Shown here: positions 2,133-43,848 of the stretch, in pieces
How the letters are laid out: each line of letters begins with the position of its first letter
Numbering within the stretch: the first letter of the stretch is position 1
Source of the DNA: Patescibacteria group bacterium
Lineage (GTDB): Bacteria > Patescibacteriota > Minisyncoccia > Phycocordibacterales > Phycocordibacteraceae
Length of the DNA stretch: 64,000 nt
Direction: 5' to 3'
Assembly (NCBI GenBank): GCA_029260935.1
Contig: JAJDCJ010000005.1
Coordinates: 16,073 to 80,072 of the forward strand
Position numbers and translations under genes: made by a program
Notes under the pieces: model-generated
Database searches by the model: none
Seen by the model: the letters and a program-made list of their open reading frames with translations, nothing else
What the model was told of the DNA's origin: nothing

Positions 2133-2972
2133 TCAACGCTCCAACTGTCGGAGCGTTTTTCCGTTTGAGATAAAGGTGATGGTTCCGGAGTCTGCCGTAT
2201 TCAAAATGACTGCGCCGTGATTTTCTATTCTATTAAGCACTTCTTGATGTGGGTGACCGTAGCGGTTGTTTTCCCCCGATGAGATAACTACAAAACCCGG
2301 ATTGACTGCCTCTAGAAAAACTTCAGCACTTGAGGTCTTTGATCCATGGTGCCCCGCCTTTAGTACGTCACTCTCTAAACTACTATGATTAATCATAGTA
2401 GTAGTAAGATATTTTTCTATGGCCTGTGGCGAGTCGCCAGTTAAAAGAAATTCTGTTTCTCCATACACTACTCTGATAATTACTGAAGCAGTGTTTGACT
2501 CAATGTCCGAAACATCACGGTCAGGAAATAGCACGTCAGCATATGCACCGCCACCAAGCAGAAAACGCATACCTGAGCGCGCAACAATTTGTTGTGGTGA
2601 ACCCTCCTCAATAATATCTTCTAGACGATTAAAAGCTGGAGAGTCAGAACTGTTTCCTGAGTGAATAAAATATTCAACTGAATAGCGCTCAAGTACATAC
2701 ACCAAGCCACCGATGTGATCTTGGTCGGGATGCGTTGAAATGACTGCATCAAGCGAGCGGTCAAAAAAGGAGAGACGTCCACTCAAACGACGAAGTACGG
2801 CCCGCGTTGCACCACCATCCACTAACACCTGAATACCAGTCGGACCTTCAATTAAAATTGAGTCCCCTTGCCCAACATCCAAAAAAGACACCGTAAGGTT
2901 AGACGGCGTGGGGACGGTATATACAAACACAACGACCACCACCAATACCCCTAAGAAGATACACTGCTTCAT
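2133..2972 (-). CDS. ComEC C-terminal-type metallo-beta-lactamase-fold domain protein (standalone, with N-terminal TM anchor)
   Basis: HxHxDH-like motif (STHPDQDHIGG) and distal GHHGS and GHPH motifs typical of the ComEC MBL domain. A single N-terminal hydrophobic helix is present. Confidence 0.7.
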   Translation of the reverse strand: MKQCIFLGVLVVVVVFVYTVPTPSNLTVSFLDVGQGDSILIEGPTGIQVLVDGGATRAVLRRLSGRLSFFDRSLDAVISTHPDQDHIGGLVYVLERYSVEYFIHSGNSSDSPAFNRLEDIIEEGSPQQIVARSGMRFLLGGGAYADVLFPDRDVSDIESNTASVIIRVVYGETEFLLTGDSPQAIEKYLTTTMINHSSLESDVLKAGHHGSKTSSAEVFLEAVNPGFVVISSGENNRYGHPHQEVLNRIENHGAVILNTADSGTITFISNGKTLRQLER

Positions 2973-3042
2973 ACACTACATCATAGTGTGAAATTTTTAT
3001 TGAAAATACCTTACCTCTCACGTTACGCAAAACACAAACAGT

Positions 3043-3651
3043 GTGCAAGGTACCATGCTACACTCAAAATATATGTATACACCCCAATCATTTAAATTTA
3101 AAACACTGGACGGGATTTCAGAGAAACAACTTGACGTCCATATCAAGCTCTACGAAGGGTATGTGAAGCACGTGAATCGCCTCTTTGAGGTGCAAACTGA
3201 GTTGAAGAAAGACCCGGAAAAAAACGCGTATGCGCTTTCCGAAGTAACGCGTAGACTCGGCTTTGAGTGGAACGGTATGCGTATGCACGAACACTACTTT
3301 GAACAATGGGAAGGCGGACACATTCCTCTTTCAAAAGAACTTGAGGGCGCGCTTGCCGCACAGTGGGGTGGTGACATGACGCATATGGTCAATGAATTTA
3401 AAGCGGTCGCTCTGATGCGTGGCATCGGCTGGACACTACTTTCCCAGGATAATAAAACAAAACAGTTCATCATCCACTGGGTTTCCGACCACGAACTTGG
3501 ACAACTCAACGACACCACTACCCTCATTGCCCTTGATATGTGGGAGCATGCTTTCATGGTTGACTACGCACCTTCTGAAAAAAATAGCTATATAGAAGCG
3601 TGGTTTAAGAACCTGAACGGAGAAGTAATCTCTTCTCGTTTCCTCGGATAA
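3043..3651 (+). CDS. sodA: Fe/Mn superoxide dismutase
   Basis: DMWEHAF(M)VDY metal-ligand motif and N-terminal HH.KH.....N motifs; about 200 aa. Confidence 0.85.
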   Translation: MQGTMLHSKYMYTPQSFKFKTLDGISEKQLDVHIKLYEGYVKHVNRLFEVQTELKKDPEKNAYALSEVTRRLGFEWNGMRMHEHYFEQWEGGHIPLSKELEGALAAQWGGDMTHMVNEFKAVALMRGIGWTLLSQDNKTKQFIIHWVSDHELGQLNDTTTLIALDMWEHAFMVDYAPSEKNSYIEAWFKNLNGEVISSRFLG

Positions 3652-5125
3652 GAACATATCCAAGCGTTGCATAGGACAGAGCGACAACGACAAGTGCACC
3701 CCACATAAAAGATTGTGGAATAGTGAGGGAAGCAAACGGCAGACCTCCAAACCAGACTGAGACTTTGAGTATATAGATGAGCAGGGCTTCAGTAATAACC
3801 GTTACCGGAAAAGCAATGACGGGGCTTATAAACGAAAGCATACTCGCTATAAATCCAAACGCCATTGCCCATGGAACAGCACCAATAACTGCAACGTTTG
3901 CAATAGGAGAAACTATTGAGACACTTCCAATTGAAACAATCAAAAGCGGTAGCACTGAAGCTTGCGCCACTATGGTAGCACCGGCAATATCACGAATACC
4001 AAAAAACGTGGGAAGAAAAGTGAGTTTTTTTGCCACGGGGTCAGCGGCAAGGATAATGCCGGCCGTTGCCAGAAACGATAACTGAAATGACAGGTTGAAA
4101 AGTAGTATGTAAGGATTTATCAAAACCATAATGGCACCAGCCAGTAATAGCGCGCGAAGCGCGCTATGGGGTCTTTTCAAAACAGACGCCACAATAATCA
4201 GCGTCGCCATTATTGAAGCGCGCACTGTCGTTTCACTTGCCCCTGTCATAAGTGCAAAAGCAATAATGCCGATACCTGCCGTTGAAAAACTCATCACGCG
4301 TGGGAGGAAAAAACTAGTTGTTTTTAAAAAGGCGTGTGCAACCAAAGAAACGTTGTACCCGGACAACACGATCATATGCACAACACCCGCTTTTTGAAAC
4401 GACGTATACAGTTCTTCCCCTAACGATTGACGCTCACCGAGTAACAAACCAGAAAGGAGTGGTGCCTCCGGGTCAGGAAGTATGGTTTCAATACGCCTCA
4501 CCAAAGTGTTTTTTACTTTTTGCAAAAACGAAACTACAGGATTACCACCTGTATGTTTTTCAACTGAAACCTGTGCGAAGGAAACGGTGTGTGTAATATG
4601 TCGTGCATATAAATAACGCTCATAATCAAAGGTGCGCCCTGAGTCAGTTATAAAAGACTCTGGTTTTTTCAACACACCCCTGACACGCACATAATCTCCA
4701 TAAACAATTTCAGTAAATGGATTTGCGGAAACCAGAACCACACCATCTACTTCATTATCGTTTACTGAAGTAACCTTCATACGAAAACGAACGGAAGATT
4801 CCGTATACTCAGGCGACGCAATAACACTACCGAGCACTACACTTTGCCCCTGTTCAAACGCTCCAAGTTCATTTGTGAATGACACATCAAATATAAAAAC
4901 GCGCGCAGTACCTAAGAGAGACGAGAAAAAGAATACACTTAGAATAATATACAATGCCTTTCTGCTGTGTATCGTCAAAAAAGAAAGCGCGAGTGTAGCG
5001 AGCGCGAGTGTAATAAAAAAAAGCAGTGCTATAAATGCACTACTTACTGTTCCTACTAAAACACCGAATACTATACCGCTAACAACTAACGGCAACACGA
5101 GGTTACGCCGGGTTATCCATTGCAT
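3605..5125 (-). CDS. comEC: ComEC/Rec2 DNA internalisation channel (DUF4131 + competence domain), lacking the MBL domain
   Basis: Polytopic membrane protein with an N-terminal OB-like soluble insert and a C-terminal multi-TM competence domain. It sits beside the separate MBL-domain gene. Confidence 0.7.
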   Translation of the reverse strand: MQWITRRNLVLPLVVSGIVFGVLVGTVSSAFIALLFFITLALATLALSFLTIHSRKALYIILSVFFFSSLLGTARVFIFDVSFTNELGAFEQGQSVVLGSVIASPEYTESSVRFRMKVTSVNDNEVDGVVLVSANPFTEIVYGDYVRVRGVLKKPESFITDSGRTFDYERYLYARHITHTVSFAQVSVEKHTGGNPVVSFLQKVKNTLVRRIETILPDPEAPLLSGLLLGERQSLGEELYTSFQKAGVVHMIVLSGYNVSLVAHAFLKTTSFFLPRVMSFSTAGIGIIAFALMTGASETTVRASIMATLIIVASVLKRPHSALRALLLAGAIMVLINPYILLFNLSFQLSFLATAGIILAADPVAKKLTFLPTFFGIRDIAGATIVAQASVLPLLIVSIGSVSIVSPIANVAVIGAVPWAMAFGFIASMLSFISPVIAFPVTVITEALLIYILKVSVWFGGLPFASLTIPQSFMWGALVVVALSYATLGYVLIRGNEKRLLLRSGS

Positions 5126-5519
5126 GGTTGGCTAACTCATCAGCGCGCGCATTGAGTTCGCGCACAACATGTTTGAAAGAAACTAGAGAGAAGTTATCCG
5201 TAATAATTTTTGAAGCGCGCGCATACTGTTTTTTTAATTCAGGGTTTTTAACCTTATATTCCCCCTTCATTTGTTTTACGATAAGCTCCGAATCCATATA
5301 TACGTCAGCTGATAGCTTTTTGCCTTTATAAAAATCTGTGGCGGCCTTAAGTCCAAGAATAAGTGCCTCATATTCAGCCCAATTGTTTGTTTGTTTCCCT
5401 AAAAACTGTGACACTGTTGCTACTTCACTCGCCCCTTCGTAGACCACCGCACCGGCGCCAGCAGGCCCCGGATTTCCTCGCGCTCCACCGTCAGTGAAAA
5501 TAGTAACTATGTCTTTCAT
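5103..5519 (-). CDS. rnhA: Ribonuclease HI
   Basis: Starts TDGGARGNPGPAG and carries the downstream WAEYEAL and ELNARADELA acidic-residue motifs of RNase H. Confidence 0.8.
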   Translation of the reverse strand: MKDIVTIFTDGGARGNPGPAGAGAVVYEGASEVATVSQFLGKQTNNWAEYEALILGLKAATDFYKGKKLSADVYMDSELIVKQMKGEYKVKNPELKKQYARASKIITDNFSLVSFKHVVRELNARADELANHAMDNPA

Positions 5520-5533
5520 GTGGGCATTGTACC

Positions 5534-7246
5534 TTATTGGTTAACGGTCATTGTAGGATCTTCTTTTAATTCTAACGCTTCCAAACGAAGACGACGTTCT
5601 TTTTTATGACCAAAAGAAGACTCTTCAAAAGAACCAGTAACTGAGACACAGTCGCCTAGAGATAGTAGCGCAATAGTGTCTCTGAAAGTATTTCTCTGTA
5701 GGAAAAAACTGATCGCATCAATAGTGTGCCCGTGGTCATCCGAAAGTGTGAGGCGTACGTGTTCTTTATGTGCACCAAAATAAATAATCTTTTCTATACG
5801 CACGTTTTGTAAATGCATAAGCGGCTTTGGGTTTGAAACACCATAGGGTGCCAGAGAACGTAGCGAAGTATAAAAAGAACTGTTCAACTCAGAAATAATG
5901 ATTGAAATATCTGCACCAAGCTTCGTTGTTTCATTTTTTGTATTTTCCTGTGCAACGCGCGCATAGACACCTGAAAGTGTCTCCTGTAAGGTATGCACCG
6001 CTTCAGTTTTTGCAGAAAAGCCACCGGCTTTTTCATGTCCTCCGTATTCTTCAAATGAATCGGAGGCGCCTTTCATTAAGGAAACAACATTTACACTTCC
6101 ATCTGAACGACATGAACCTTTAATAAGGTCACCGTCTTTCCCCCACAAACACACGGTACGCTTATACGTCTCAACAACACTGGAGGCGGCGATACCTAAC
6201 AGTGCCGGGTTCCAGTCCGGGTTTCCAAGCACCACTACACTGTCAAGCGAAACACCTTCAAGTCGTCTTTTTACTTCTTTTGCAACACGGGCGCCGTCTA
6301 GTTTTCGTGCATTATTTAACTTTATTAATTCTTTCGCTAATTCATCAGCGCGAAATCTGTCTTTTGTGGTGAGAAGTTCAAATGCAAGCATTGGACTTTT
6401 CATACGGCTGGAGGCATTCACCTTGGGGGCAATTGAAAAACTAATATCATCTTCAATAACTGATGAAAGTGGCACTCGCATTTTCTCAAGCAAGGTACGA
6501 AGACCTATGCGTCTGCCACGATGCAATACCATAAGTCCGTAATGAACTAATGTCCTATTTTCACCAATTAACGGAACAACATCAGCAACTGTTGCAACGG
6601 CAACTAAATCAAGCAACCACTTCTCAGTCCCTGTAGGTACCGTGACGCCACCTTTTTGTAAAAATGCCTCAACTAATTTGAATGCGACACCCGTTCCACA
6701 CAGCTCGGAAAATGGATATGCACAGTGTTCTTGATGCGGATTTAATATAGAAACTGCATCAGGTAATTCCTCAACCTCCTCACCTCCTTCATCTGAAACG
6801 CGCCTTGGTAAGTGATGATCAGTGATGATGGTGTCAATACCTAACTTCTTTGCGTAGGTCACTTCATCAAAAGCAACAATACCATTATCAACGGTGATAA
6901 TGAGTGCAACATGTTGTTCTTTGAGCGAGTCTATTCCTTTTTTATTAAGCCCATACCCCTCACTTCTCTCAGGAATATAAAACACTGCCGGATACTTAAT
7001 GAGCGTGAAAAAATCTGACATGAGCGCCGCTCCAGGAACACCGTCACAGTCATAGTCGCCCCACACCGCAATCACTTCGTTACTTTCAATCGCTTTTTTT
7101 ATACGTGCAACCGCACTGTCCATACCTCGCATAAGGAATGGGTCTGGTCTCTCTTCATACTGAGGGTTAAGGAATGTCGCCTGTTCACTACCTACAATAC
7201 CCCTCTCTTCAAGAAGGCGGGCAAGTTGTGGGGGAAGAGCTGACAT
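5534..7246 (-). CDS. recJ: Single-stranded-DNA-specific exonuclease RecJ
   Basis: DHH family motifs (DYDCDGV, ITDHH, NGIVAFD...) and a DHHA1 C-terminal region. The start is taken at MSALPPQLARLLEERG. Confidence 0.85.
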   Translation of the reverse strand: MSALPPQLARLLEERGIVGSEQATFLNPQYEERPDPFLMRGMDSAVARIKKAIESNEVIAVWGDYDCDGVPGAALMSDFFTLIKYPAVFYIPERSEGYGLNKKGIDSLKEQHVALIITVDNGIVAFDEVTYAKKLGIDTIITDHHLPRRVSDEGGEEVEELPDAVSILNPHQEHCAYPFSELCGTGVAFKLVEAFLQKGGVTVPTGTEKWLLDLVAVATVADVVPLIGENRTLVHYGLMVLHRGRRIGLRTLLEKMRVPLSSVIEDDISFSIAPKVNASSRMKSPMLAFELLTTKDRFRADELAKELIKLNNARKLDGARVAKEVKRRLEGVSLDSVVVLGNPDWNPALLGIAASSVVETYKRTVCLWGKDGDLIKGSCRSDGSVNVVSLMKGASDSFEEYGGHEKAGGFSAKTEAVHTLQETLSGVYARVAQENTKNETTKLGADISIIISELNSSFYTSLRSLAPYGVSNPKPLMHLQNVRIEKIIYFGAHKEHVRLTLSDDHGHTIDAISFFLQRNTFRDTIALLSLGDCVSVTGSFEESSFGHKKERRLRLEALELKEDPTMTVNQ

Positions 7247-7272
7247 ACCAAGTATGCTAGCATACTTGGTAT

Positions 7273-7680
7273 ATGGATAATTGTATTTTTTGTAAGATTG
7301 TCTCACATGAAATCCCAAGCTGTCGTGTCTTTGAGGATGATACCGTGATTGTGTTTCTGGACATTCATCCTGTTAACCCAGGGCACGTGCTTGTTATTCC
7401 TAAAAAACACTCTGAGAGTTTTTACGAGCTTGATAAAGAAACCTATATACACGCTATGGAAATTGCTCACACAATGGCGAACGCCATTATGAAAATAGTG
7501 AAGCCGGTGCGCGTCGGTTTGGTTATTGATGGATGGGAAATCTCCCACACTCATATTCATGTTATTCCTACTAATAACATAGGTGACATTACCTCCTTGA
7601 AAAAAATTAAAGGAGAGCTTGGCGCGCCAACGGCAGAAGAGCTCGCAGAAATGGCAGAGAACATCAAGAGCTTTCTTTAA
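7273..7680 (+). CDS. HIT family hydrolase
   Basis: CIFC zinc motif at the N-terminus and the histidine triad HTHIHVIP. Confidence 0.8.
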   Translation: MDNCIFCKIVSHEIPSCRVFEDDTVIVFLDIHPVNPGHVLVIPKKHSESFYELDKETYIHAMEIAHTMANAIMKIVKPVRVGLVIDGWEISHTHIHVIPTNNIGDITSLKKIKGELGAPTAEELAEMAENIKSFL

Positions 7681-13688: not shown

Positions 13689-14906
13689 CTAAATACTGTT
13701 AGATAACGAATAAATGGGGGCAATCATTGAGATTGCAAAAAATCCCACACCTGCACCAATAATAAGCATGAGAAACGGTTCAATAATAGTTGAAAGGTCT
13801 TTGGTCTGTTGTTCAACCGATTCTTCGTAAAAATCAGCTGTTTCTTTAAGAAGACCTGAAAGGCGTCCTGTCTCTTCTCCCACTGCAACCATTTCGGAAA
13901 CGAGCGGAGGATATAAGTTTGGATGGTTTCCAAACGACTCTGAAAGGTTTTTTCCTTTTACGACTCCAGCTTCGGCTTCGGCTAACACCGCTTGGTAGGC
14001 TTTATTTTGTAGTACGTCTTTGGTAATTGCAATTGCAAGCACCATATCAACACCTGATGAAAGGAGGGACGAAAGCGTGCGTGCGGTGCGCGCTGAGTTG
14101 GTTTCAACAACAAGCTGTTGAATTACTGGTGTTTTTAACATAAGCCAGTCTACAAGATCTCTCCCGCGTGTTGTCCGTATAAAAACAACACCACCAACAG
14201 TAACGGCTACCAATAGTGAAAATGAAAGCAGTGGACTTGTTGAGAGAAAATTACTGAGAGCAATAATAACTTGCGTTGTTGGTGGAAGCTCTGTTCCCAG
14301 TTCCTCAAATGTTTGTGTGAGCGTTGGCACTACATAAATAAGCATTAAAATCCCGATAATGATCATCGCAAACAACACGACTGACGGGTACATAAGGGCA
14401 CCGCGAATTTTCTTTTTGAGCGTACTTGTTTTTTCCATCTGTGTTGAGACAACACGTAAACTTTCTGAAAGTTTACCTGACTCTTCCCCTGCACGCACCA
14501 TGGAAATAAGCAGTGGTGAGAACACATTATCAAACTTAGAAAATGCAACTGAAAGCGGGCTTCCCCGCCCTACTTCTGCGGTGATACTCTTCAGAATAAG
14601 CTTAAGACGTGGATTTTTTGATTGACGCTCCATCACTGAAAGTGCGCGACTGGTGGTGAGTCCTGCCTCAAGCATGGCAGCTAAGTTACGCGTCAATACC
14701 ACCTTCTCGTCGGCGTTTACTCCTTGAAAAATGACTGAGAGTGAGTCAAGAGAAAAGAGAGATTTCTTTTGGTCTTCAGTCAGTGACGTTAAGTGGTCGC
14801 CTCTCTCTCGCACCTGCTTGTAGACGTCAAAACGATCTGGAGCTTCAATAATCTCCTCGTAGGGTTTGTTATCTTTGGCAACAGCGCTAACGTGATACTT
14901 TGGCAC
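13689..14906 (-). CDS. pilC: Type IV pilus assembly platform protein PilC (GspF family)
   Basis: Two T2SSF repeats, each with three TM segments and conserved GEETG.L motifs. Confidence 0.85.
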   Translation of the reverse strand: MPKYHVSAVAKDNKPYEEIIEAPDRFDVYKQVRERGDHLTSLTEDQKKSLFSLDSLSVIFQGVNADEKVVLTRNLAAMLEAGLTTSRALSVMERQSKNPRLKLILKSITAEVGRGSPLSVAFSKFDNVFSPLLISMVRAGEESGKLSESLRVVSTQMEKTSTLKKKIRGALMYPSVVLFAMIIIGILMLIYVVPTLTQTFEELGTELPPTTQVIIALSNFLSTSPLLSFSLLVAVTVGGVVFIRTTRGRDLVDWLMLKTPVIQQLVVETNSARTARTLSSLLSSGVDMVLAIAITKDVLQNKAYQAVLAEAEAGVVKGKNLSESFGNHPNLYPPLVSEMVAVGEETGRLSGLLKETADFYEESVEQQTKDLSTIIEPFLMLIIGAGVGFFAISMIAPIYSLSNSI

Positions 14907-15133: not shown

Positions 15134-16870
15134 CTATTCCGAAACAACACGTAACACTTCCTCAATACTGGTTACGCCAAGCGCCGCTTTGTAAATACCG
15201 TCTTCAATCATAGTGAGCATACCTTCTTTCTTTGCCTGAGATTCAATTTTTGTAGCATCAGCTCCTTGTAAAATAAGCTCTCTAATTTCAGCAGTGATAG
15301 GGAGTATTTCATGAATGCCGATACGGCTCGCATATCCTTCAGGGCATGCTTTTGTTTCCTTTGGTCGGTAGAATGGAATATCTGAAACTTTTGCATCTTT
15401 CTCTATCTTTCCCTCTTTTTTGAGTACTGCCAATATCTTCTTGAGGTCAACTGACTCCTCCATTTCCTCCCTCTCCTTAGGGGAAAGGGTATACTCTTCC
15501 CTGCTTTCACAAAGTTTACGCACGAGTCTTTGCCCAACAATAACGCGCAATGTTGAAACTAAAAGAAAGGACTCCGCTTCCATATCAACTAAGCGCGGAA
15601 TGGTGGCAGAAGCCGAGTTCGTGTGAAGTGTTGACAGCACCACGTGCCCGGTGAGTGCTGCATTAACTGCAAGCGATGCTGTTTCCGTGTCACGGATTTC
15701 CCCCACCATAATAATGTCGGGGTCTTGTCGCACTAACGTGCGCAGTCCTTGGGCAAAGGTAAACCCGATGTCAGGACGTACCTGTGTTTGATTAACGCGC
15801 GGCATCTGATATTCAATAGGGTCTTCAATTGTTGAGATATTCACTTCAGGCGCGTTTAAAATATCAAGTATGGTGTAGAGTGTCGTAGTTTTACCACTTC
15901 CTGTTGGTCCTGTTACCAAAATCATACCCGTTTTCTGCCGTGTTGCATCATGAATATGCTCAAGTCCCGCACCATGAAAACCAAGACTCTCAAGGGTAAA
16001 GTTACCGCCACCTTCACGTAAAAGACGCATTACTATTTTTTCTCCATAGAAAGTAGGAAGTATTGATACACGGAAACTCACCCGCTCTAGATCGGCTTCT
16101 ATTTTAAACCTCCCATCCTGCGGAAGTCGTTTCTCGTCTAACTTAAGAGAGCTCAGCACCTTAATACGTGCCGTCACTCCCGCTGCAACGTGTGCAGGAA
16201 GCTCCATCGCATCGTGCAATAGTCCGTCAACGCGATACCTAATAAGGAGTTTTTCCTCCAAGGGCTCAATATGAATGTCAGAGGCATTTTGAATAATGGC
16301 GTGGCGCAGTAGTGTGTCTACAATTTTCACCACCGGTACATCCTCTGCCAAAAGTGCCAAACCCTTCTCGTCTAAATCTGTTTGCGTTGCAAGTGTTTGC
16401 GAAGCAGATTTAATAATGTCTCCAAACTCTTCTTTAAGGGTTTTTTGATAGAGCAACAACGCGTACTTGATTGACGCAACATCGGTGAGACGTGGGAGTA
16501 TTTTCAACCCTACTTTCTTTTTAATAAAATCAATTGACGCGATGTCGTTAGTATCAAGCATGGCAACTTCAAGCGACGTCTCGTCTTTTGTATATGCAAC
16601 AACATTATTGTTGCGTGCAATTGGCTCGGGAATAAGCATCAAAACATCTAAGTCAATTTTTGCCTTTACGAGAGACACGAACGGGATACCTAAAATATGT
16701 GCCTCCATACGACGAACGTCATCTTCTGAAAGAGACCCCAAGGAAACAATGGCATCTTTGAGTGATACTTTTTTTTCTTTTGCCATGCGCTCGGCCTCTT
16801 CTATGTCTTTGCGCGAAACCAAGCCCGAATCAATGGTAAACACCTTTAGTTGTTCGTCAGAAACCTTCAT
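15134..16870 (-). CDS. pilB: Type IV pilus assembly ATPase PilB (GspE family)
   Basis: N-terminal GSPII_E domain, Walker A GPTGSGKTTT, Asp box and His box, and a CxxC...CxxC tetracysteine motif. Confidence 0.9.
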   Translation of the reverse strand: MKVSDEQLKVFTIDSGLVSRKDIEEAERMAKEKKVSLKDAIVSLGSLSEDDVRRMEAHILGIPFVSLVKAKIDLDVLMLIPEPIARNNNVVAYTKDETSLEVAMLDTNDIASIDFIKKKVGLKILPRLTDVASIKYALLLYQKTLKEEFGDIIKSASQTLATQTDLDEKGLALLAEDVPVVKIVDTLLRHAIIQNASDIHIEPLEEKLLIRYRVDGLLHDAMELPAHVAAGVTARIKVLSSLKLDEKRLPQDGRFKIEADLERVSFRVSILPTFYGEKIVMRLLREGGGNFTLESLGFHGAGLEHIHDATRQKTGMILVTGPTGSGKTTTLYTILDILNAPEVNISTIEDPIEYQMPRVNQTQVRPDIGFTFAQGLRTLVRQDPDIIMVGEIRDTETASLAVNAALTGHVVLSTLHTNSASATIPRLVDMEAESFLLVSTLRVIVGQRLVRKLCESREEYTLSPKEREEMEESVDLKKILAVLKKEGKIEKDAKVSDIPFYRPKETKACPEGYASRIGIHEILPITAEIRELILQGADATKIESQAKKEGMLTMIEDGIYKAALGVTSIEEVLRVVSE

Positions 16871-19027: not shown

Positions 19028-20500
19028 TTACGTCTCCAATTTTGGGCGGTATTGTAGCGCTTCAAGAATGTGCTGTTCTTCAACGGCGTCTGAGTTTTCC
19101 AAGTCGGCAATGGTGCGTGCCACACGCATAACGCGGTGGTAGGAGCGCGGGGAAAGTTTTAACACGCCGGCTGAGCGTTGCAGTGTTTCAAGTGCAGTAT
19201 CTTTTATGTTGATAACACGCTCAATGTTGCGTGCGCCAATTTCACTGTTAGTGCTTCCATTTCTTGTATCAGCACATGCGCGCGCTTTGAGTATTCGCTT
19301 TAAAACAATTTCACTCGCCTCTCCCCCACCTTTTGAGAGAAGCTTATGAGGGACATGCGGTACCTCAATCCACAAATCAATACGGTCAATGATGGCGCCT
19401 GATAATTTTTTCTGAAAACGTGCAACGTCGCGCGGGTCGGCACGGTCGCTCGGTGGGTTCATTGCGGCAATCAACATAATATTTGCAGGAAACGTCGCAG
19501 TGCCCGACGCACGAGAAACAGTGACATGTCTGTTTTCAAGTGGTTCACGCAATGCTTCAACTGACCGACGATCAAACTCTGGGAACTCATCCATAAACAA
19601 CACACCACGGTGCGCTAGTGTTACTTCCCCGGGCTTTATAAACGTACCACCACCAACTAATGAAACGTACGATGACGTGTGATGCGGACTCCGAAAAGGA
19701 GCCGTGGTAATGGGAGATCCGTCTAACACGCCGGCTACGGAATGAATCGCGGTAACCTCCAAGACCTCGTCAGGTGTAAGTGGTGGTAAAATACCGGCGA
19801 GTGCTTGGGCCAACATTGTTTTGCCGGTGCCGGGTGGCCCACTGAGTGCAACATTATGTCTGCCGGCGGCCGCTATTTCTACTCCACGCTTTGCTGTTTC
19901 TTGACCTGCAATGTCACTCATATCAAGCGTATAGGGAGCGATATATATTTCTGGTGTATGTACTACTTCCTCCAAAGGAGCACTGCCCGTGAGGTGCTCC
20001 ACCAGTTCAGAAAGAGTTTCAACGCCGTAAATGGCAATATCATCAACGAGAGTTGCTTCTTTTGTATTTTTTTTCGGAAGAATAATTGAGGTAAAGCCGT
20101 TGTCACGCGCCGCAAGGGTGGCCGAAAGTGCGCCTTTAATAGGAGAAATAGACCCGTCCAATGAAAGCTCCCCGAGGCACACAGTATTTTTTGAATCAAA
20201 AGAAATTTCCTCGGCTGCAAGTAAATAGGCAAGCGCCATGGGTACATCAAACACCGGACCTTCTTTCTTTACATCGGCCGGTGCGAGCGAGATAACTATT
20301 TTATGGTTTTTACTTTTTGGTGCACTGAAACCCGCATGTTTGATTGCACTACTGACGCGGTCGCGCGCCTCTTCAACCGCCTTACCAGGAAGACCTACAA
20401 CAGTAAACGCATAGAGTCCTTTTGATAAGTCTGCCTCAATTGAAATAATTGGCGCCTTTGGAAACTGAGGCTGTACGCTAAATACGCGGGCAAATGCCAT
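19028..20500 (-). CDS. comM: YifB/ComM family Mg-chelatase-like AAA+ ATPase
   Basis: Lon-like N-terminal domain, Walker A GPPGTGKT, Walker B LFMDEFPEF and a C-terminal ChlI domain. Confidence 0.9.
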   Translation of the reverse strand: MAFARVFSVQPQFPKAPIISIEADLSKGLYAFTVVGLPGKAVEEARDRVSSAIKHAGFSAPKSKNHKIVISLAPADVKKEGPVFDVPMALAYLLAAEEISFDSKNTVCLGELSLDGSISPIKGALSATLAARDNGFTSIILPKKNTKEATLVDDIAIYGVETLSELVEHLTGSAPLEEVVHTPEIYIAPYTLDMSDIAGQETAKRGVEIAAAGRHNVALSGPPGTGKTMLAQALAGILPPLTPDEVLEVTAIHSVAGVLDGSPITTAPFRSPHHTSSYVSLVGGGTFIKPGEVTLAHRGVLFMDEFPEFDRRSVEALREPLENRHVTVSRASGTATFPANIMLIAAMNPPSDRADPRDVARFQKKLSGAIIDRIDLWIEVPHVPHKLLSKGGGEASEIVLKRILKARACADTRNGSTNSEIGARNIERVINIKDTALETLQRSAGVLKLSPRSYHRVMRVARTIADLENSDAVEEQHILEALQYRPKLET

Positions 20501-26771: not shown

Positions 26772-27692
26772 ATGAATGCGTATGACCTAAAACGAAAGTT
26801 TCTTGAGTATCTGGAAATATCAAAAGGAAGGTCACTAAAAACCCTTGAAAACTACGACCGCTATCTGACGCGTTTTATTATTTTTACGAAAATAAGCGAG
26901 CCGAAAGAAATTACTGACACCATGGTGCAGGAGTTCCGCCTCTACCTCAACCGCCTCCCCACTCACGGAGGTGGCACCATGAAAAGAAAAACACAAAACT
27001 ACCACCTTATTGCCCTGCGTGCGTTTCTGAAATATCTTCAGCGTGAGAATGTAGAAACCCTTACGCCAGAGCGTATTGAATTAGCAAAAGTACCTGAGCG
27101 CTCCCTTGAGTTGATCACTACCGCGGAGCTTGAGCGCCTTATGAAGGCCCCTGCTGACGCTCTAAAAAAAGAAAGTGATTCATTTAAACAACAGATTCTC
27201 CTGCGCGACCAGGCAATTATGGAGCTCTTGTTTTCAACAGGACTTCGGGTGAGTGAGTTGGCGGCGCTCAATACAGACATAGACCTTTCGCGTGACGAAA
27301 TGTCAGTGAGAGGGAAGGGAGACAAGGTGCGTGTGGTGTTTCTTTCGGGTCGTGCGAAAACTGCGGTGCGCGCTTACCAAAAAGCGCGCACCGATATGGA
27401 AGAGGCGCTGTTTGTAGACGGACGCCCTAAAGCACTCCACCGCATTACCCCGAGGGACATACAGCGTCATATAAAAAAATATGCCATACAGGCGGGCATT
27501 ACCAGTAAGGTCACGCCTCACGTACTCCGGCACGTGTTTGCAACTGACCTTCTTGAAAACGGTGCTGATATTCGCTCGGTCCAGGCGCTTCTAGGACACG
27601 CTAATATTGCCACCACGCAGGTGTATACGCACGTCACCGATAAACACCTACGAGATATTCATAAGGCATTTCACGGCAAAAAAAGAACCTGA
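26772..27692 (+). CDS. xerC: Tyrosine recombinase XerC/XerD-like
   Basis: SAM-like N-terminal domain and a C-terminal catalytic R..H.RH..Y pattern (HVLRHVFAT...HANIATTQVYTHV). Confidence 0.85.
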   Translation: MNAYDLKRKFLEYLEISKGRSLKTLENYDRYLTRFIIFTKISEPKEITDTMVQEFRLYLNRLPTHGGGTMKRKTQNYHLIALRAFLKYLQRENVETLTPERIELAKVPERSLELITTAELERLMKAPADALKKESDSFKQQILLRDQAIMELLFSTGLRVSELAALNTDIDLSRDEMSVRGKGDKVRVVFLSGRAKTAVRAYQKARTDMEEALFVDGRPKALHRITPRDIQRHIKKYAIQAGITSKVTPHVLRHVFATDLLENGADIRSVQALLGHANIATTQVYTHVTDKHLRDIHKAFHGKKRT

Positions 27693-27707
27693 ACCTATCG
27701 ACACTTA

Positions 27708-27750
27708 CCCACTTGTGCGAATCCCGGGATTCGCACAAGTGGGTAAAAAA
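27708..27750 (+). terminator. Rho-independent terminator after xerC
   Basis: cccacttgtgcgaatcccgggattcgcacaagtggg followed by an A/T run. Confidence 0.65.
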
Positions 27751-27818
27751 CCGAGCAGTGTTTGACTTTTTTCTTTAAAATGTTAAAATAAGTTAATACT
27801 TACTAGCATATAAATTTT

Positions 27819-27971
27819 ATGCCTAAACCTGAGAAAATATGGGCCGAGGGAGAATACGAAACTTCTAAGACATTGAACGCTTTTTTAAAGTGGGTTGGTG
27901 TCGCAGCAATAATTGCACTTGTGCTTGGAATTCCGTTAGCGGTTGTTTTAAGCAATAAAGACATTTTCTAA
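27819..27971 (+). CDS. Small membrane protein (50 aa), hypothetical
   Basis: ORF MPKPEKIWAEGEYETSKTLNAFLKWVGVAAIIALVLGIPLAVVLSNKDIF with one TM helix, followed by a terminator hairpin at 28021-28055. Confidence 0.35.
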   Translation: MPKPEKIWAEGEYETSKTLNAFLKWVGVAAIIALVLGIPLAVVLSNKDIF

Positions 27972-28020
27972 GAGCATTCTCCAATATCCAGATAGTATCT
28001 TCTTAGCGTAACAGCACAAA

Positions 28021-28055
28021 AGTGTGCGAATCCCGGGATTCGCACACTTTTTTCA
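28021..28055 (+). terminator. Rho-independent terminator sharing the GTGCGAATCCCGGGATTCGCAC core with the xerC terminator
   Basis: aaagtgtgcgaatcccgggattcgcacacttttttc. Confidence 0.6.
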
Positions 28056-28088
28056 AAAAGAAGAGAGGGGTGGTGGTATGCTAGGTAT

Positions 28089-28883
28089 ATGAAACTGGTT
28101 TCGTGGAACGTAAATGGCATTCGTGCGGTGCACCGCAAAGAACAGCTGGTACCTATGGTAGAAACTCTGAAACCAGATGTTTTATGCCTACAGGAAACCA
28201 AAGCGAGGTCGGAACAGTCCGAGGTTGATCTGCCTGAATATGAAGAATATTGGAACTCGGCTGAAAGAAAAGGATACTCAGGAACTGCTGTTTTTAGTAA
28301 AATAAAGCCCTTGAGTATTATTGAAGATTTTCCTGAAGCGATTGTCAAAAAATACGGCTTAAAAGATGGGTTCGGTGACACTAATGCCGAAGGGAGGGTC
28401 TTGGTGCTTGAGTTTAGTGATTTTTACATACTGACCGTTTATACACCGAATGCGAAACGCGATTTGGGGCGTCTACCGCTACGAGATAAACACTGGGATC
28501 CTGCGTTTTTGGCATACATGAAACTGTTGGAGGAGAAAAAGTCCGTGATTGCCTGTGGGGACTTTAATGTTGCCCACAAGGAAATAGATATCGCCCGACC
28601 AAAAGAAAACAAAAACTCAGCTGGCTTTACTAAAGAGGAGCGCACCGGCTTTGATAACTATATAATGGCTGGTTTTATAGACACTTTTCGTATGTTTCAT
28701 AACGAAGGAGAGTGCTACACCTGGTGGAGTAATTTTAATCATGCCCGAGAGAGAAATATTGGCTGGCGGATTGACTACTTTTTAGTGTCTAGCGCCCTCA
28801 AAGAAAAAGTGAAAAAAGCCAATGTTCATATGGATATTTTTGGTTCTGACCACTGCCCTATTTCAGTGGAAATAGAGAGTTAG
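28089..28883 (+). CDS. xth: Exodeoxyribonuclease III
   Basis: Starts MKLVSWNVNGIRA, with LCLQETK, the GDFN/H motif (CGDFNVAH), WW..F and a C-terminal SDHCPI. Confidence 0.9.
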   Translation: MKLVSWNVNGIRAVHRKEQLVPMVETLKPDVLCLQETKARSEQSEVDLPEYEEYWNSAERKGYSGTAVFSKIKPLSIIEDFPEAIVKKYGLKDGFGDTNAEGRVLVLEFSDFYILTVYTPNAKRDLGRLPLRDKHWDPAFLAYMKLLEEKKSVIACGDFNVAHKEIDIARPKENKNSAGFTKEERTGFDNYIMAGFIDTFRMFHNEGECYTWWSNFNHARERNIGWRIDYFLVSSALKEKVKKANVHMDIFGSDHCPISVEIES

Positions 28884-29144
28884 GAGTGAGCAGTGAGCAA
28901 TCAGCATAGAGTTTTGAATACTCACTGCTCGTTGCTGATTGCTGACTATTTTCTAAAGGACAAAAACTGTTGATAAGTACATTAAAATGTCCTTTATAAA
29001 TGTATACTTGTAAAGGACAGTTCTTTACACGGTGGAGCTTCGCCTACCTATACGCGCTCTCAAAAATATTGAATGATAAAGCGGCGTCGTAATTTAGCGC
29101 TCTACCTTAAACAAAACAGACCTATGGTTTCATAGGTCTGTTTT

Positions 29145-29348
29145 TTAGCCATAGGGTTTATTACTTCCTTTCCACTTTCTTCTCATATCTCCTCGAGAAC
29201 GAGATTTTGAACCAACCGTATATCCAATTACAAAAATTGTAAACAACACAAGTAAGCCAGCTCCTCCATACATTATCCACTCGCATGAGTGAACAGCTTG
29301 TTCTTCCGCAACACCTCTTCCTGCTTCATAAAATTTAAAATCACTCAT
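29145..29348 (-). CDS. Small membrane protein (67 aa), hypothetical
   Basis: A single TM helix and a basic C-terminus, preceded on the same strand by hairpin 29112-29145. Confidence 0.3.
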   Translation of the reverse strand: MSDFKFYEAGRGVAEEQAVHSCEWIMYGGAGLLVLFTIFVIGYTVGSKSRSRGDMRRKWKGSNKPYG

Positions 29349-29381
29349 TTACACAGTATCGTATCATATTGATATATTTTG

Positions 29382-37917: not shown

Positions 37918-38048
37918 GACAAAACCGCCCGCTTCGCGGTACCATCGCCATTCCAATTCGTCGCGCAGCGGCGCGCCCATTTGCTTTCCGCCGCGCCTGC
38001 GGCGCGGCGGTCTTCCGTCCTCAATTCAGAAGAAGTTTCAATCTGTGC
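37918..38048. repeat. R1b, right (inverted) copy of the 131-bp repeat
   Basis: Reverse complement of 36353-36483 and abutting R2a. Confidence 0.8.
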
Positions 38049-41667: not shown

Positions 41668-43848
41668 TTATTTTTTATTTCTCTTAGTAATCCATGCCTC
41701 ATACTCTTTAATAACAAGACGAGCTGATTCTTCGGCAGAAAGGTTACTAGTGTCAATCACGAGGTCAAACGGCTGGGTGTTTAAAATATCAATACCATAC
41801 AACTCCTGATAACGGCGTTTTTTACTCTCCTGTCGCATACGTGCATTGTGTTTGATATGCTCAATGGAAGCATCTTCTTCTGCCATACGCCCCTCTTCAT
41901 GAATACTTTGGTGTATGCGCTGTGCTACTAAATCATCAGAAACGGTCACGAACACCTTAAACGAGCGCTGTATCCAGTGGTAGGCAAGGCGCGAGTCAAT
42001 AACGAGATGATTTTCCTTAACGCCAAGTTCTTGAACAATCTCATCAATTTCTCTATCAATAGAAGGGTCCGCTTCTGCTTTTTCAGTAAGCTCATTTACA
42101 GACACGTTACGGTTTTCTGCAACCGATCTAAAAATGTCACCCGCCGAAAAGAGTTGGTACCTGAGTCGCCGGGCAAGTGCTCTGCCTATACTTGAGGCAC
42201 CAGCACCGTGTGTACCCGTTATAGTAATAATTTCCTTTTTTGTTCTTTGTATTACTTCTGTATCTTCTTTTTTTAATTGCTTTAAGATTCTGCCAACAGT
42301 ATGGGAACCCAAGCGCGCGACACTTTTTTCATGTCGTTTAATACTTTGTGTCTGAAAAATACCATACCCTAACACAGCAACCATAGGGAAGAGTGAGGCA
42401 AATGCGATGAGCCCAAACCCGTCAATAAGCGGGTCTCGGCCGGGAATACTTGAGGCAAGTCCCAAACCAAGTGCCGCCACAATAGGCACGGTGACCGTTG
42501 ACGTGGTGACGCCACCTGAGTCATAAGCAATAGGCACGGTTGTTTTTGGAGCGAAAAATGTAAGAATGACAACCACACTGTACCCGATGGCGAGGTACCA
42601 CACAATTGAGTCGCCGTTAATGATGCGGTATGCGCCAAGCAAGATACCTATTCCCACGCCGGACGCAACGGCAATGCGCAGAACAAATGAACGTATCGCG
42701 CCAGCACTTAAGAGCTCAGCTTTGTTCGCAATCGCCGTTAACGCTGGCTCAGCAATAGTGGTGGCAAAACCGATAGTGAAAGCGAAGAGATAGATAAGGA
42801 AAATGTTTCCCTTTACGGCAAGTGCTACTGCAATCGTCTCGCCAACAGGAAAGAGCCCAAGTTCAAGACCAACAACAAACGCATACAGTCCTAAAATAAC
42901 AAGAATAAATCCAAAGACATGAGTTATCGGAGAGGTGAGAGGTTTTCTGATAACTACCAAATAGAAAAAGAGAACCGTGAGTATAATCGGTGTCACGTCA
43001 CCTATAGTTGCAACGAACTGTGTAAGGTATGGAGTAAACGATGATGAGGCAAAAAATGCCACTGCCGCCTGCATTGACTGCGCCGCAGACCCAACAAGCG
43101 TGGCGCCTGAGAGCGAAGTAGCACTGATAACACCCGAGTACGCAACAACTCCGTAGAGTTGCACAAAAATCATCGGCAGTAGTGAAGCAAAAGCAATTAA
43201 CCCAAAGCCATCTATGATGGGGTTTCTGTTTTTTAAACTTGAGGCAACGCCAATACCTAAAGCCGCGATCAGTGGCACGGTGACCGTTGACGTGGTGACG
43301 CCACCTGAGTCGTATGCCAGTCCCACAATTTCCTGCGGTGCAAAATAGGTAACCGTCAGTGCAATAACGTAGCCGGAAATTATATACCAATGAATAGGGT
43401 GGTTGAGAAAAATACGAACAACACCGATGACAATTGCTACCCCCACAGAAAATGCCACGACAAGGCGAAGTATGAGTGCATCAATCTGTCCGTCGCTAAT
43501 AACTGCCGCTTTGTGGGCAATAGCCAACAAAGCGGGTTCTGCAATGGTGGTGGCAAAGCCAATAACAAACGCAAAAATAAGAACCCAAAACCTACGCTTT
43601 GAAGAAGCGAGTTGTGTGGCAAGATTTTCCCCAAGAGGGAAGACTCCCATTTCAAGTCCACGCATAAAAAGAGCAAGCCCGATACCAACAATTGCCAGCC
43701 CGAGCACCATGCTTGGTAAATTATCGGGAGTTGTTCGCAATATAACGAACTGGAAAAAAGCAATGACTCCGATAATAACGGTAAGGTCTAGAAATGATCT
43801 ACGAATATCGCCGACAAAGGTATAAAAATGCTTCTTGAGCTTCGGCAT
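41668..43848 (-). CDS. Fusion protein: tandem-duplicated polytopic membrane domain (DUF1538-like, two homologous halves) fused to a C-terminal cytidylate-kinase-like P-loop domain
   Basis: A continuous 726-aa ORF. The internal repeat pairs FATTIAEPAL / AYDSGGVTTSTVTVP are each present twice. The C-terminal 200 aa carry ITGTHGAGASSIGRALARRL, a P-loop in a cytidylate-kinase-like arrangement. Confidence 0.65.
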   Translation of the reverse strand: MPKLKKHFYTFVGDIRRSFLDLTVIIGVIAFFQFVILRTTPDNLPSMVLGLAIVGIGLALFMRGLEMGVFPLGENLATQLASSKRRFWVLIFAFVIGFATTIAEPALLAIAHKAAVISDGQIDALILRLVVAFSVGVAIVIGVVRIFLNHPIHWYIISGYVIALTVTYFAPQEIVGLAYDSGGVTTSTVTVPLIAALGIGVASSLKNRNPIIDGFGLIAFASLLPMIFVQLYGVVAYSGVISATSLSGATLVGSAAQSMQAAVAFFASSSFTPYLTQFVATIGDVTPIILTVLFFYLVVIRKPLTSPITHVFGFILVILGLYAFVVGLELGLFPVGETIAVALAVKGNIFLIYLFAFTIGFATTIAEPALTAIANKAELLSAGAIRSFVLRIAVASGVGIGILLGAYRIINGDSIVWYLAIGYSVVVILTFFAPKTTVPIAYDSGGVTTSTVTVPIVAALGLGLASSIPGRDPLIDGFGLIAFASLFPMVAVLGYGIFQTQSIKRHEKSVARLGSHTVGRILKQLKKEDTEVIQRTKKEIITITGTHGAGASSIGRALARRLRYQLFSAGDIFRSVAENRNVSVNELTEKAEADPSIDREIDEIVQELGVKENHLVIDSRLAYHWIQRSFKVFVTVSDDLVAQRIHQSIHEEGRMAEEDASIEHIKHNARMRQESKKRRYQELYGIDILNTQPFDLVIDTSNLSAEESARLVIKEYEAWITKRNKK

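Follow-up and report, generated by a model that had tools for sequence, protein, structure and literature searches.

The canonical ComEC/Rec2 proteins, such as those of B. subtilis and Neomoorella (structures 30bt and 9IC4) and those captured by the family model TIGR00361, are built from an OB fold, a channel domain, and transmembrane helix 11 (TM11) followed by a metallo-beta-lactamase (MBL) nuclease domain, in that order. The ComEC structure solved by cryo-electron microscopy (cryo-EM) shows 11 transmembrane (TM) helices with a short cytoplasmic helix (CH1) between TM10 and TM11; TM11 is disordered and not visible in one protomer, and the MBL domain is carried on a flexible linker and placed only by a small, weak contact with a loop of the OB fold (PMC13539106). 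Variation in the domain content of ComEC is well documented (Pimentel & Zhang 2018); in that survey ComECs without Lactamase_B were counted as domain loss, and MBL domains encoded in trans were not sought. What becomes of the non-transforming strand in organisms with a ComEC that has no C-terminal nuclease was posed as an open question (Silale et al. 2021), and whether species with a nuclease-less ComEC transform is still to be demonstrated (PMC12455585). Papers on the Candidate Phyla Radiation (CPR) give 'ComEC' as a single core gene (including PMC8672522). Here we describe a comEC gene that is split in two, found in a window of 64,000 nucleotides from a Patescibacteria group bacterium (assembly GCA_029260935.1, contig JAJDCJ010000005.1, positions 16,073 to 80,072). 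One gene encodes the OB fold and channel (the channel half) and the other an anchored MBL domain (the MBL half); a superoxide dismutase (SOD) gene, sodA, lies between them on the opposite strand. These three open reading frames (ORFs) had been called in an initial annotation, and their positions, including the convergence of the SOD and channel genes, were confirmed (Table 1).

The identity of the MBL half was assessed with NCBIfam, PDB sequences and fold comparison, and by these three independent measures the protein is the C-terminal domain of ComEC. It carries the Lactamase_B domain (PF00753, E 2.4e-14), and its best NCBIfam match was TIGR00361, ComEC/Rec2, over positions 418-663 of the 663 in the model (E 5e-39; E 2e-21 for the best non-ComEC family). 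All six PDB sequence matches were ComEC entries, among them residues 518-789 of the full-length protein (30bt_A, E 1.7e-32) and the isolated nuclease domain (9IC4, E 5.5e-30). The AlphaFold2 (AF2) model, for which 22 homologues were used, had a predicted local distance difference test (pLDDT) score of 91, and its top Foldseek match was again 9IC4 (E 9e-25, template-modelling scores 0.79/0.82). The next match, nine orders of magnitude weaker, was the phosphorylcholine esterase Pce (E 6.5e-16); for the ComEC nuclease domain itself, Pce is likewise reported as the nearest neighbour in structure (PMC12455585). The concern that the protein might resemble unrelated MBL hydrolases more closely than ComEC, raised in the initial annotation, was thus not borne out by sequence or fold.

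The MBL half is intact in its catalytic residues. Motif II reads H81-P-D83-Q-D85-H86, the HxDxDH variant described for the characterised ComEC nuclease (PMC12455585). Residues D37, D83, D85, H86, N160, D180, H208, H209, S211 and H240 were invariant among 81 sequences of 41-63% identity, and H81 was replaced by Asn in 4 of these 81 standalone proteins; the same type of substitution has been noted for the possibly inactive domain of S. pneumoniae ComEC. The protein is, as had been proposed, a standalone one with its own signal anchor: a single N-terminal hydrophobic helix spans residues 4-22 by hydropathy and residues 2-19 in the AF2 model, and an N-terminal TM helix, 12-24 residues ahead of the GQGD motif, was found in 72 of the 73 homologues scored. 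A different arrangement was met in P0135 / P0280, a protein of 721 residues with a lipoprotein signal and two tandem ComEC-type MBL domains but no channel, which shows that there are also free, extracytoplasmic enzymes made of the ComEC nuclease module.

The channel half begins with three N-terminal TM helices, followed by the OB fold (PF13567 DUF4131, E 1.9e-19) and the Competence channel domain (PF03772, E 5.6e-44, residues 227-485), and it aligned with residues 30-470 of full-length ComEC (30bt_A, E 2e-23). Its Y168 and Y171 correspond to the entrance tyrosines Y169 and Y172 of ComEC-Nc and its H250 to the constriction histidine H254; these residues, the SGxN motif and R302 were conserved among 51 homologues. 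By hydropathy the last TM helix spans residues 475-493 and is followed by 13 residues up to the end of the protein, with the basic tail RGNEKRLLLRSGS. In nearly all of the 51 homologues, too, the C-terminus lies shortly behind a TM helix, and the tail is usually basic. The conserved and intact catalytic and channel residues are incompatible with decay of either half.

Together the two proteins have all the parts of a ComEC/Rec2 protein, that is, the Competence channel domain, an OB fold with the entrance aromatics, and an MBL nuclease domain with its ligands; what they lack is the presence of all three domains on one polypeptide (the canonical DCL architecture). In keeping with this, the halves taken singly scored 95.6 and 134 bits against TIGR00361, both below its cutoff of 190 bits. 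An alignment of both proteins with full-length ComEC, which the initial annotation had proposed, gave two complementary stretches (30-470 and 518-789) that tile the solved protein of 801 residues with no segment missing; the 47-residue alignment gap from 470 to 518 is spanned by about 43 residues of the two proteins. The MBL half starts with 'MK', with K2 on the N side, and enters at once a TM helix that is equivalent to TM11 of ComEC in the alignment with 30bt_A. Because the channel half ends in a TM helix with a basic tail and the MBL half starts with a TM helix, the cut is placed in the cytoplasmic TM10-TM11 loop, where it is predicted to free a semi-autonomous module of TM11 and nuclease. 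The canonical topology (TM10, cytoplasmic loop, TM11, external MBL) is retained as far as hydropathy and the AF2 helix can define it. Rejoining of the halves by a frameshift or a split intein was considered and rejected, given the opposite-strand SOD gene between the ORFs and the 13-residue tail and immediate TM helix, which leave no room for an intein. With SOD on the opposite strand between them, the ComEC halves must be transcribed and translated as separate proteins.

The occurrence of the split was surveyed with a homologue scan of one genome per GTDB species, in which at least 570 genomes matched, and the loci of the best 80 of these were compared. They derive from Kaiser-, Wolfe-, Zambryski-, Campbell-, Nomura-, Taylor- and Yonathbacteria and other Paceibacteria-type metagenome-assembled genomes (MAGs). 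Many of the locus records (L006-L078) are titled 'uncultured Candidatus Saccharibacteria bacterium', but their gene order is Paceibacteria-type and their proteins are 45-55% identical; these titles look like placeholder labels rather than true Saccharibacteria. The survey, which the initial annotation had called for, showed split comEC in all 61 related loci with a same-strand upstream channel gene (none was fused), and SOD between the halves in 48 of the 61, on the opposite strand every time. Linkage of the channel and MBL genes holds in 61 of the ~69 loci with enough flanking sequence. In five loci without SOD, the channel and MBL ORFs abut or overlap in different frames, and each MBL gene has its own ATG and anchor. 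A programmed frameshift at the A-rich junction of two loci (L015 and L028) was rejected: the ATG and signal anchor of the MBL protein are encoded in its own frame, and a gene intervenes in most loci. In a Yonath-like clade (L034, L042, L049-L052, L074, L033) SOD is replaced by a gene for a DedA/VTT membrane protein of ~196 residues, also on the opposite strand. Between the ComEC halves, two different, unrelated genes (SOD and DedA/VTT) have thus been kept, with the same orientation. Loci with the channel-SOD-MBL order occur throughout a neighbour-joining (NJ) tree of the MBL proteins, with the variants nested inside, and this order is probably ancestral for the sampled clade. The description of sodA as 'inserted' is best taken for its position between the halves, not for an event.

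PF00753 was present in none of the 120 nearest channel homologues, all of which had DUF4131 and Competence, or Competence alone where truncated. There are thousands of MBL homologues; the best 120 all measure 246-306 residues and belong to Patescibacteria/Paceibacteria where named, and about 139 of the best 150 representatives of 50%-identity clusters are standalone proteins of at most 320 residues. The few fused representatives, with 788-824 residues and 42-46% identity, have the ordinary three-domain ComEC form and come from genomes that are not CPR-like; one of them belongs to a comEA-comEC operon, on a contig of 2.35 Mb. When 151 MBL domains were placed in an NJ tree, the fused sequences formed no clean outgroup, and the tree did not discriminate between fission and a primordial split. 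Overall, split comEC is a trait of the whole clade and not private to the source genome. The initial annotation had left two readings, a functional two-component system or an ancient disruption. Since both halves are intact and conserved, the functional two-component reading is favoured over decay; of the second reading, the part that stands is that the split is old and clade-wide, and not that the gene is a decaying disruption.

On the basis of homology, topology and conserved linkage, we infer association and nuclease activity of the two products, which likely constitute a functional two-subunit ComEC with the nuclease supplied in trans; a role in transformation or nucleotide acquisition may likewise be inferred. 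The channel gene, probably co-transcribed with recJ and the RNase H gene, would make the OB fold and a ten-helix channel, and the MBL gene would be transcribed alone, from the region that it shares divergently with the SOD gene. In the MBL protein, the eleventh TM helix would serve as a signal anchor (N-in/C-out), and a ComEC-type two-metal nuclease would be exposed on the outside of the membrane. The anchored nuclease could then diffuse in the membrane and dock at the channel entrance, using TM11 and the weak contact that the MBL domain makes with the OB-fold loop, by which the canonical ComEC geometry would be rebuilt; once docked, it would degrade the non-transported strand while the other strand enters.

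Several observations weigh against this model. The linkage is not obligatory: in 8 loci no channel gene was found within 5-10 kb of the MBL gene, and in 4 further loci the two genes are 6-8 kb apart. Divergent channel genes hidden at the MBL-alone loci were considered and rejected, as the upstream ORFs are unrelated by Pfam (iPGM, ClpP, ComM-like, CreD, Band 7, trigger factor). Once shared phylogeny was accounted for, a mirror-tree analysis of 26 loci showed no remaining co-evolution of channel and MBL (partial r 0.07 given RecJ), a result that neither supports nor excludes a weak channel-MBL interface. An AF2 prediction on the concatenated channel and MBL sequences without an alignment was uninformative (mean pLDDT 38.5, predicted template-modelling score 0.25). 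In vitro, the ComEC nuclease is more active with the OB fold on the same chain (PMC12455585). Finally, in D. radiodurans a second 'ComEC' homologue, dr0361, is dispensable for transformation (PMC7314969).

The main rival to the two-subunit ComEC is that the standalone MBL protein is an independent membrane-anchored extracellular nuclease or phosphodiesterase, perhaps a nucleotide scavenger, and that its neighbourhood is only inherited gene order. The unlinked and distant loci and the missing co-evolution signal just described fit such an enzyme, and so do the better conservation of the MBL half than of the channel half (mean distance 0.52 vs 0.62), the existence of a ComEC-type MBL protein without a channel (the tandem-MBL lipoprotein P0135), and the rank of a phosphorylcholine esterase as the next structural relative behind ComEC. 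We nevertheless regard it as unlikely. The two genes are linked in most loci with enough flank, and where no gene intervenes the ORFs adjoin or overlap, which suggests coupled expression. In addition, the channel halves never have a nuclease of their own, so that the cell would otherwise be without a ComEC nuclease, and in ComEC the TM anchor has a homologue, TM11.

The SOD encoded between the halves is predicted to be a genuine cytoplasmic Fe/Mn SOD. Its C-terminal domain was recognised by Pfam (PF02777 Sod_Fe_C, E 7.6e-17), and its N-terminal domain, PF00081, remained below the cutoff (19.7 vs 27 bits). The best PDB match was 1coj, the Aquifex Fe-SOD, with a full-length alignment (E 1.1e-19). 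The metal ligands H33, H82, D165 and H169 and the gateway Tyr were invariant among 56 homologues; loss of the first metal ligand was considered and rejected, as the alignment shows all four. The second-sphere His30 is Leu in 56 of 56 homologues (E. coli Fe-SOD numbering). Compared with the Aquifex/archaeal-like Fe/Mn SODs of the 1coj type, the protein thus has the same fold family, the four metal ligands and the gateway Tyr, and it differs in the His30 position and in the N-terminal domain score. No TM helix or signal peptide was detected by hydropathy. The gene caller starts the gene at 3073, which gives a protein of 192 residues. The channel and SOD genes overlap by 20-73 nucleotides in 10 of the 48 related loci and are at most 50 nucleotides apart in about half, and the spacing between the MBL and SOD genes is mostly 50-200 nucleotides. 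The divergent region between the MBL and SOD genes presumably holds the promoters of both; a weak promoter-like site was noted at 3096-3068 on the minus strand. The SOD and RecJ distances run in parallel (r 0.77), which is what vertical inheritance of SOD in place would give, and in broken loci SOD stays with either ComEC half. SOD is most likely a long-conserved, vertically inherited passenger, and no functional link between SOD and DNA uptake was found. SOD2-type genes are common in Patescibacteria and enriched in oxic groundwater (PMC8672522).

In principle, SOD could be a functional partner of the split ComEC, for instance through a shared divergent promoter that ties DNA uptake to oxygen. 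It has been retained between the halves across class-level divergence (48 of 61 loci), it shares a short intergenic region with the MBL gene, and the presence of SOD in Patescibacteria correlates with oxic habitats (PMC8672522), all of which would be consistent with this. We consider such a partnership very improbable: SOD has neither a signal peptide nor a TM helix, whereas the nuclease is extracytoplasmic; it is replaced by DedA/VTT in one clade and absent in others; it remains with either half in broken loci; and the unrelated neighbours rpmB and recJ are conserved equally. More remote still is the proposal, made for CPR 'MBL-like' genes, that the MBL protein has no role in DNA uptake and acts as a hydrolase of beta-lactamase-like or multifunctional type. 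Thousands of CPR MBL-fold genes were classed as B3-like in a survey (PMC10459063), and the protein has a weak NCBIfam match to blaAHM (B3-like MBL, E 2e-21). That match, however, amounts to 76 bits against a cutoff of 590, so that the protein falls outside the B3-like subclass; the ComEC matches are far stronger in sequence and fold, the motif is the HxDxDH of the ComEC nuclease type, and the survey never considered ComEC or competence (PMC10459063). A sequencing or assembly artefact, or a decaying comEC with a non-functional MBL remnant, might be suspected because canonical ComEC is one polypeptide and MAG assemblies can hold frameshifts, but this is already refuted by the comparative data, given a complete opposite-strand gene between the halves, the same split in 61 independent assemblies, intact MBL ORFs with invariant catalytic residues (n=81), and the identical locus sequence in an independent Logan assembly (run SRR15505513).

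Table 1. Features of the split comEC locus (positions in the window).
Feature	Position	Strand	Description
ComEC N-part (channel) gene	3605..5125	-	506 aa (amino acids); Pfam DUF4131 + Competence
ComEC C-part gene (signal-anchor TM + MBL)	2133..2972	-	279 aa; PF00753, TIGR00361
Fe/Mn SOD gene between the ComEC parts	3043..3651	+	202 aa; Pfam; likely true start ATG 3073
Tail-to-tail overlap of channel and SOD 3' ends	3605..3651		47 nt (nucleotides), from ORF coordinates
Divergent intergenic region, MBL gene/SOD gene	2973..3072		70-100 nt, depending on SOD start
RNase H gene	5103..5519	-	Pfam; directly upstream of channel gene, co-oriented
RecJ gene (DHH, DHHA1, RecJ_OB domains)	5534..7318	-	Pfam
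GC-rich hairpin	2135..2157		terminator score on both strands; 3' end of MBL gene, facing rpmB

On the minus strand, recJ, the RNase H gene and the channel gene follow one another in this order and in the same direction (5103-7318), with a gap of 14 nucleotides after recJ and an overlap of 23 nucleotides between the 3' end of the RNase H gene and the channel start. The recJ-rnh-channel order recurs in about 40 related loci and recJ is kept in about 45; the position of the RNase H gene is conserved as well. The RNase H and channel genes are probably in the same operon, and the recJ/RNase H/channel arrangement suggests that DNA import is coupled with nucleases that process single-stranded DNA and RNA-DNA. 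Genes for PilC (T2SSF, 13689-14906), PilB (T2SSE, 15134-16870) and a ComM-like Mg-chelatase/AAA protein (19028-20500) lie 8-15 kb away from the split comEC, which makes its proposed relevance to competence in CPR bacteria reasonable. In one of the related loci (L033) a ComM-like gene is found directly upstream of the DedA-MBL pair.

A few further features of the window were recorded. The hairpin at the end of the MBL gene overlaps its last codons. A Cys-rich ORF of 56 residues (CxxxxC...CxxC, 1952-2122) begins one base past the rpmB stop codon and has no Pfam match; two related loci (L002 and L003) have no space for it. A cluster of four tRNA genes (31455-36355) has a tyrosine integrase (26772-27692) on one side and a large serine recombinase (36346-37980) on the other, and the region 26772-37980 may be an integrated mobile element. 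The minus-strand gene at 41668-43848 encodes a protein of 726 residues with an unusual architecture, in which two DUF1538 membrane domains are followed by a C-terminal cytidylate-kinase-like/AAA domain.

The two-subunit organisation implies that a whole clade supplies its ComEC nuclease as a separate anchored subunit, and it suggests how seemingly nuclease-less ComECs may still degrade the second DNA strand. It also amounts to a natural domain dissection, made exactly at the loosely tethered TM11 and MBL module of the cryo-EM structure, from which it is predicted that a ComEC split at this position still works. Domain-profile surveys will score such a split ComEC as domain loss, and surveys of CPR 'beta-lactamase-like' genes may count ComEC nuclease subunits as resistance-type enzymes. 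For the CPR the locus refines the parts list of the DNA-uptake system behind natural transformation and, possibly, nucleotide acquisition. Some standalone MBL proteins are already annotated 'ComEC/Rec2 family competence protein' by pipelines; no published description of a split ComEC, of the cut position or of the conserved synteny was found in a literature search that covered few subscription-journal papers. It is a doubtful but conceivable extension that trans-encoded, TM11-anchored ComEC nucleases are general, and that many of the roughly half of ComECs scored as nuclease-less have a detached partner. The standalone anchored MBL protein might represent the pre-fusion ancestral state, with the three-domain ComEC arising by repeated gene fusion; such a history would agree with Pimentel & Zhang, who inferred multiple 'gains' of Lactamase_B.

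Compared with the known systems, the locus shares with canonical ComEC/Rec2 its modules, the HxDxDH motif and metal ligands, the entrance tyrosines, the channel histidine, the SGxN motif and the arginine, and it differs in the use of two genes with an opposite-strand SOD between them and in a nuclease that is a separate membrane-anchored polypeptide. Two separate 'ComEC' homologue genes in one genome are also found in D. radiodurans (dr1854 and dr0361), one of which is the essential channel (PMC7314969); deletion of dr0361 left transformation intact, and the case is a lead only and a possible precedent. EndA of S. pneumoniae is likewise a separate membrane-anchored nuclease on the outer face, which degrades the non-transforming strand beside the ComEC channel (PMC8579336), but EndA is not of the MBL fold and is unrelated to the C-terminal domain of ComEC, whereas the protein described here is the detached ComEC nuclease module itself. 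In domain content the locus can also be compared with the MBL-less ComECs of the 'DC' profile, such as that of H. pylori (Pimentel & Zhang 2018): the channel protein taken alone has exactly this profile, and here the 'missing' domain is a separate gene nearby.

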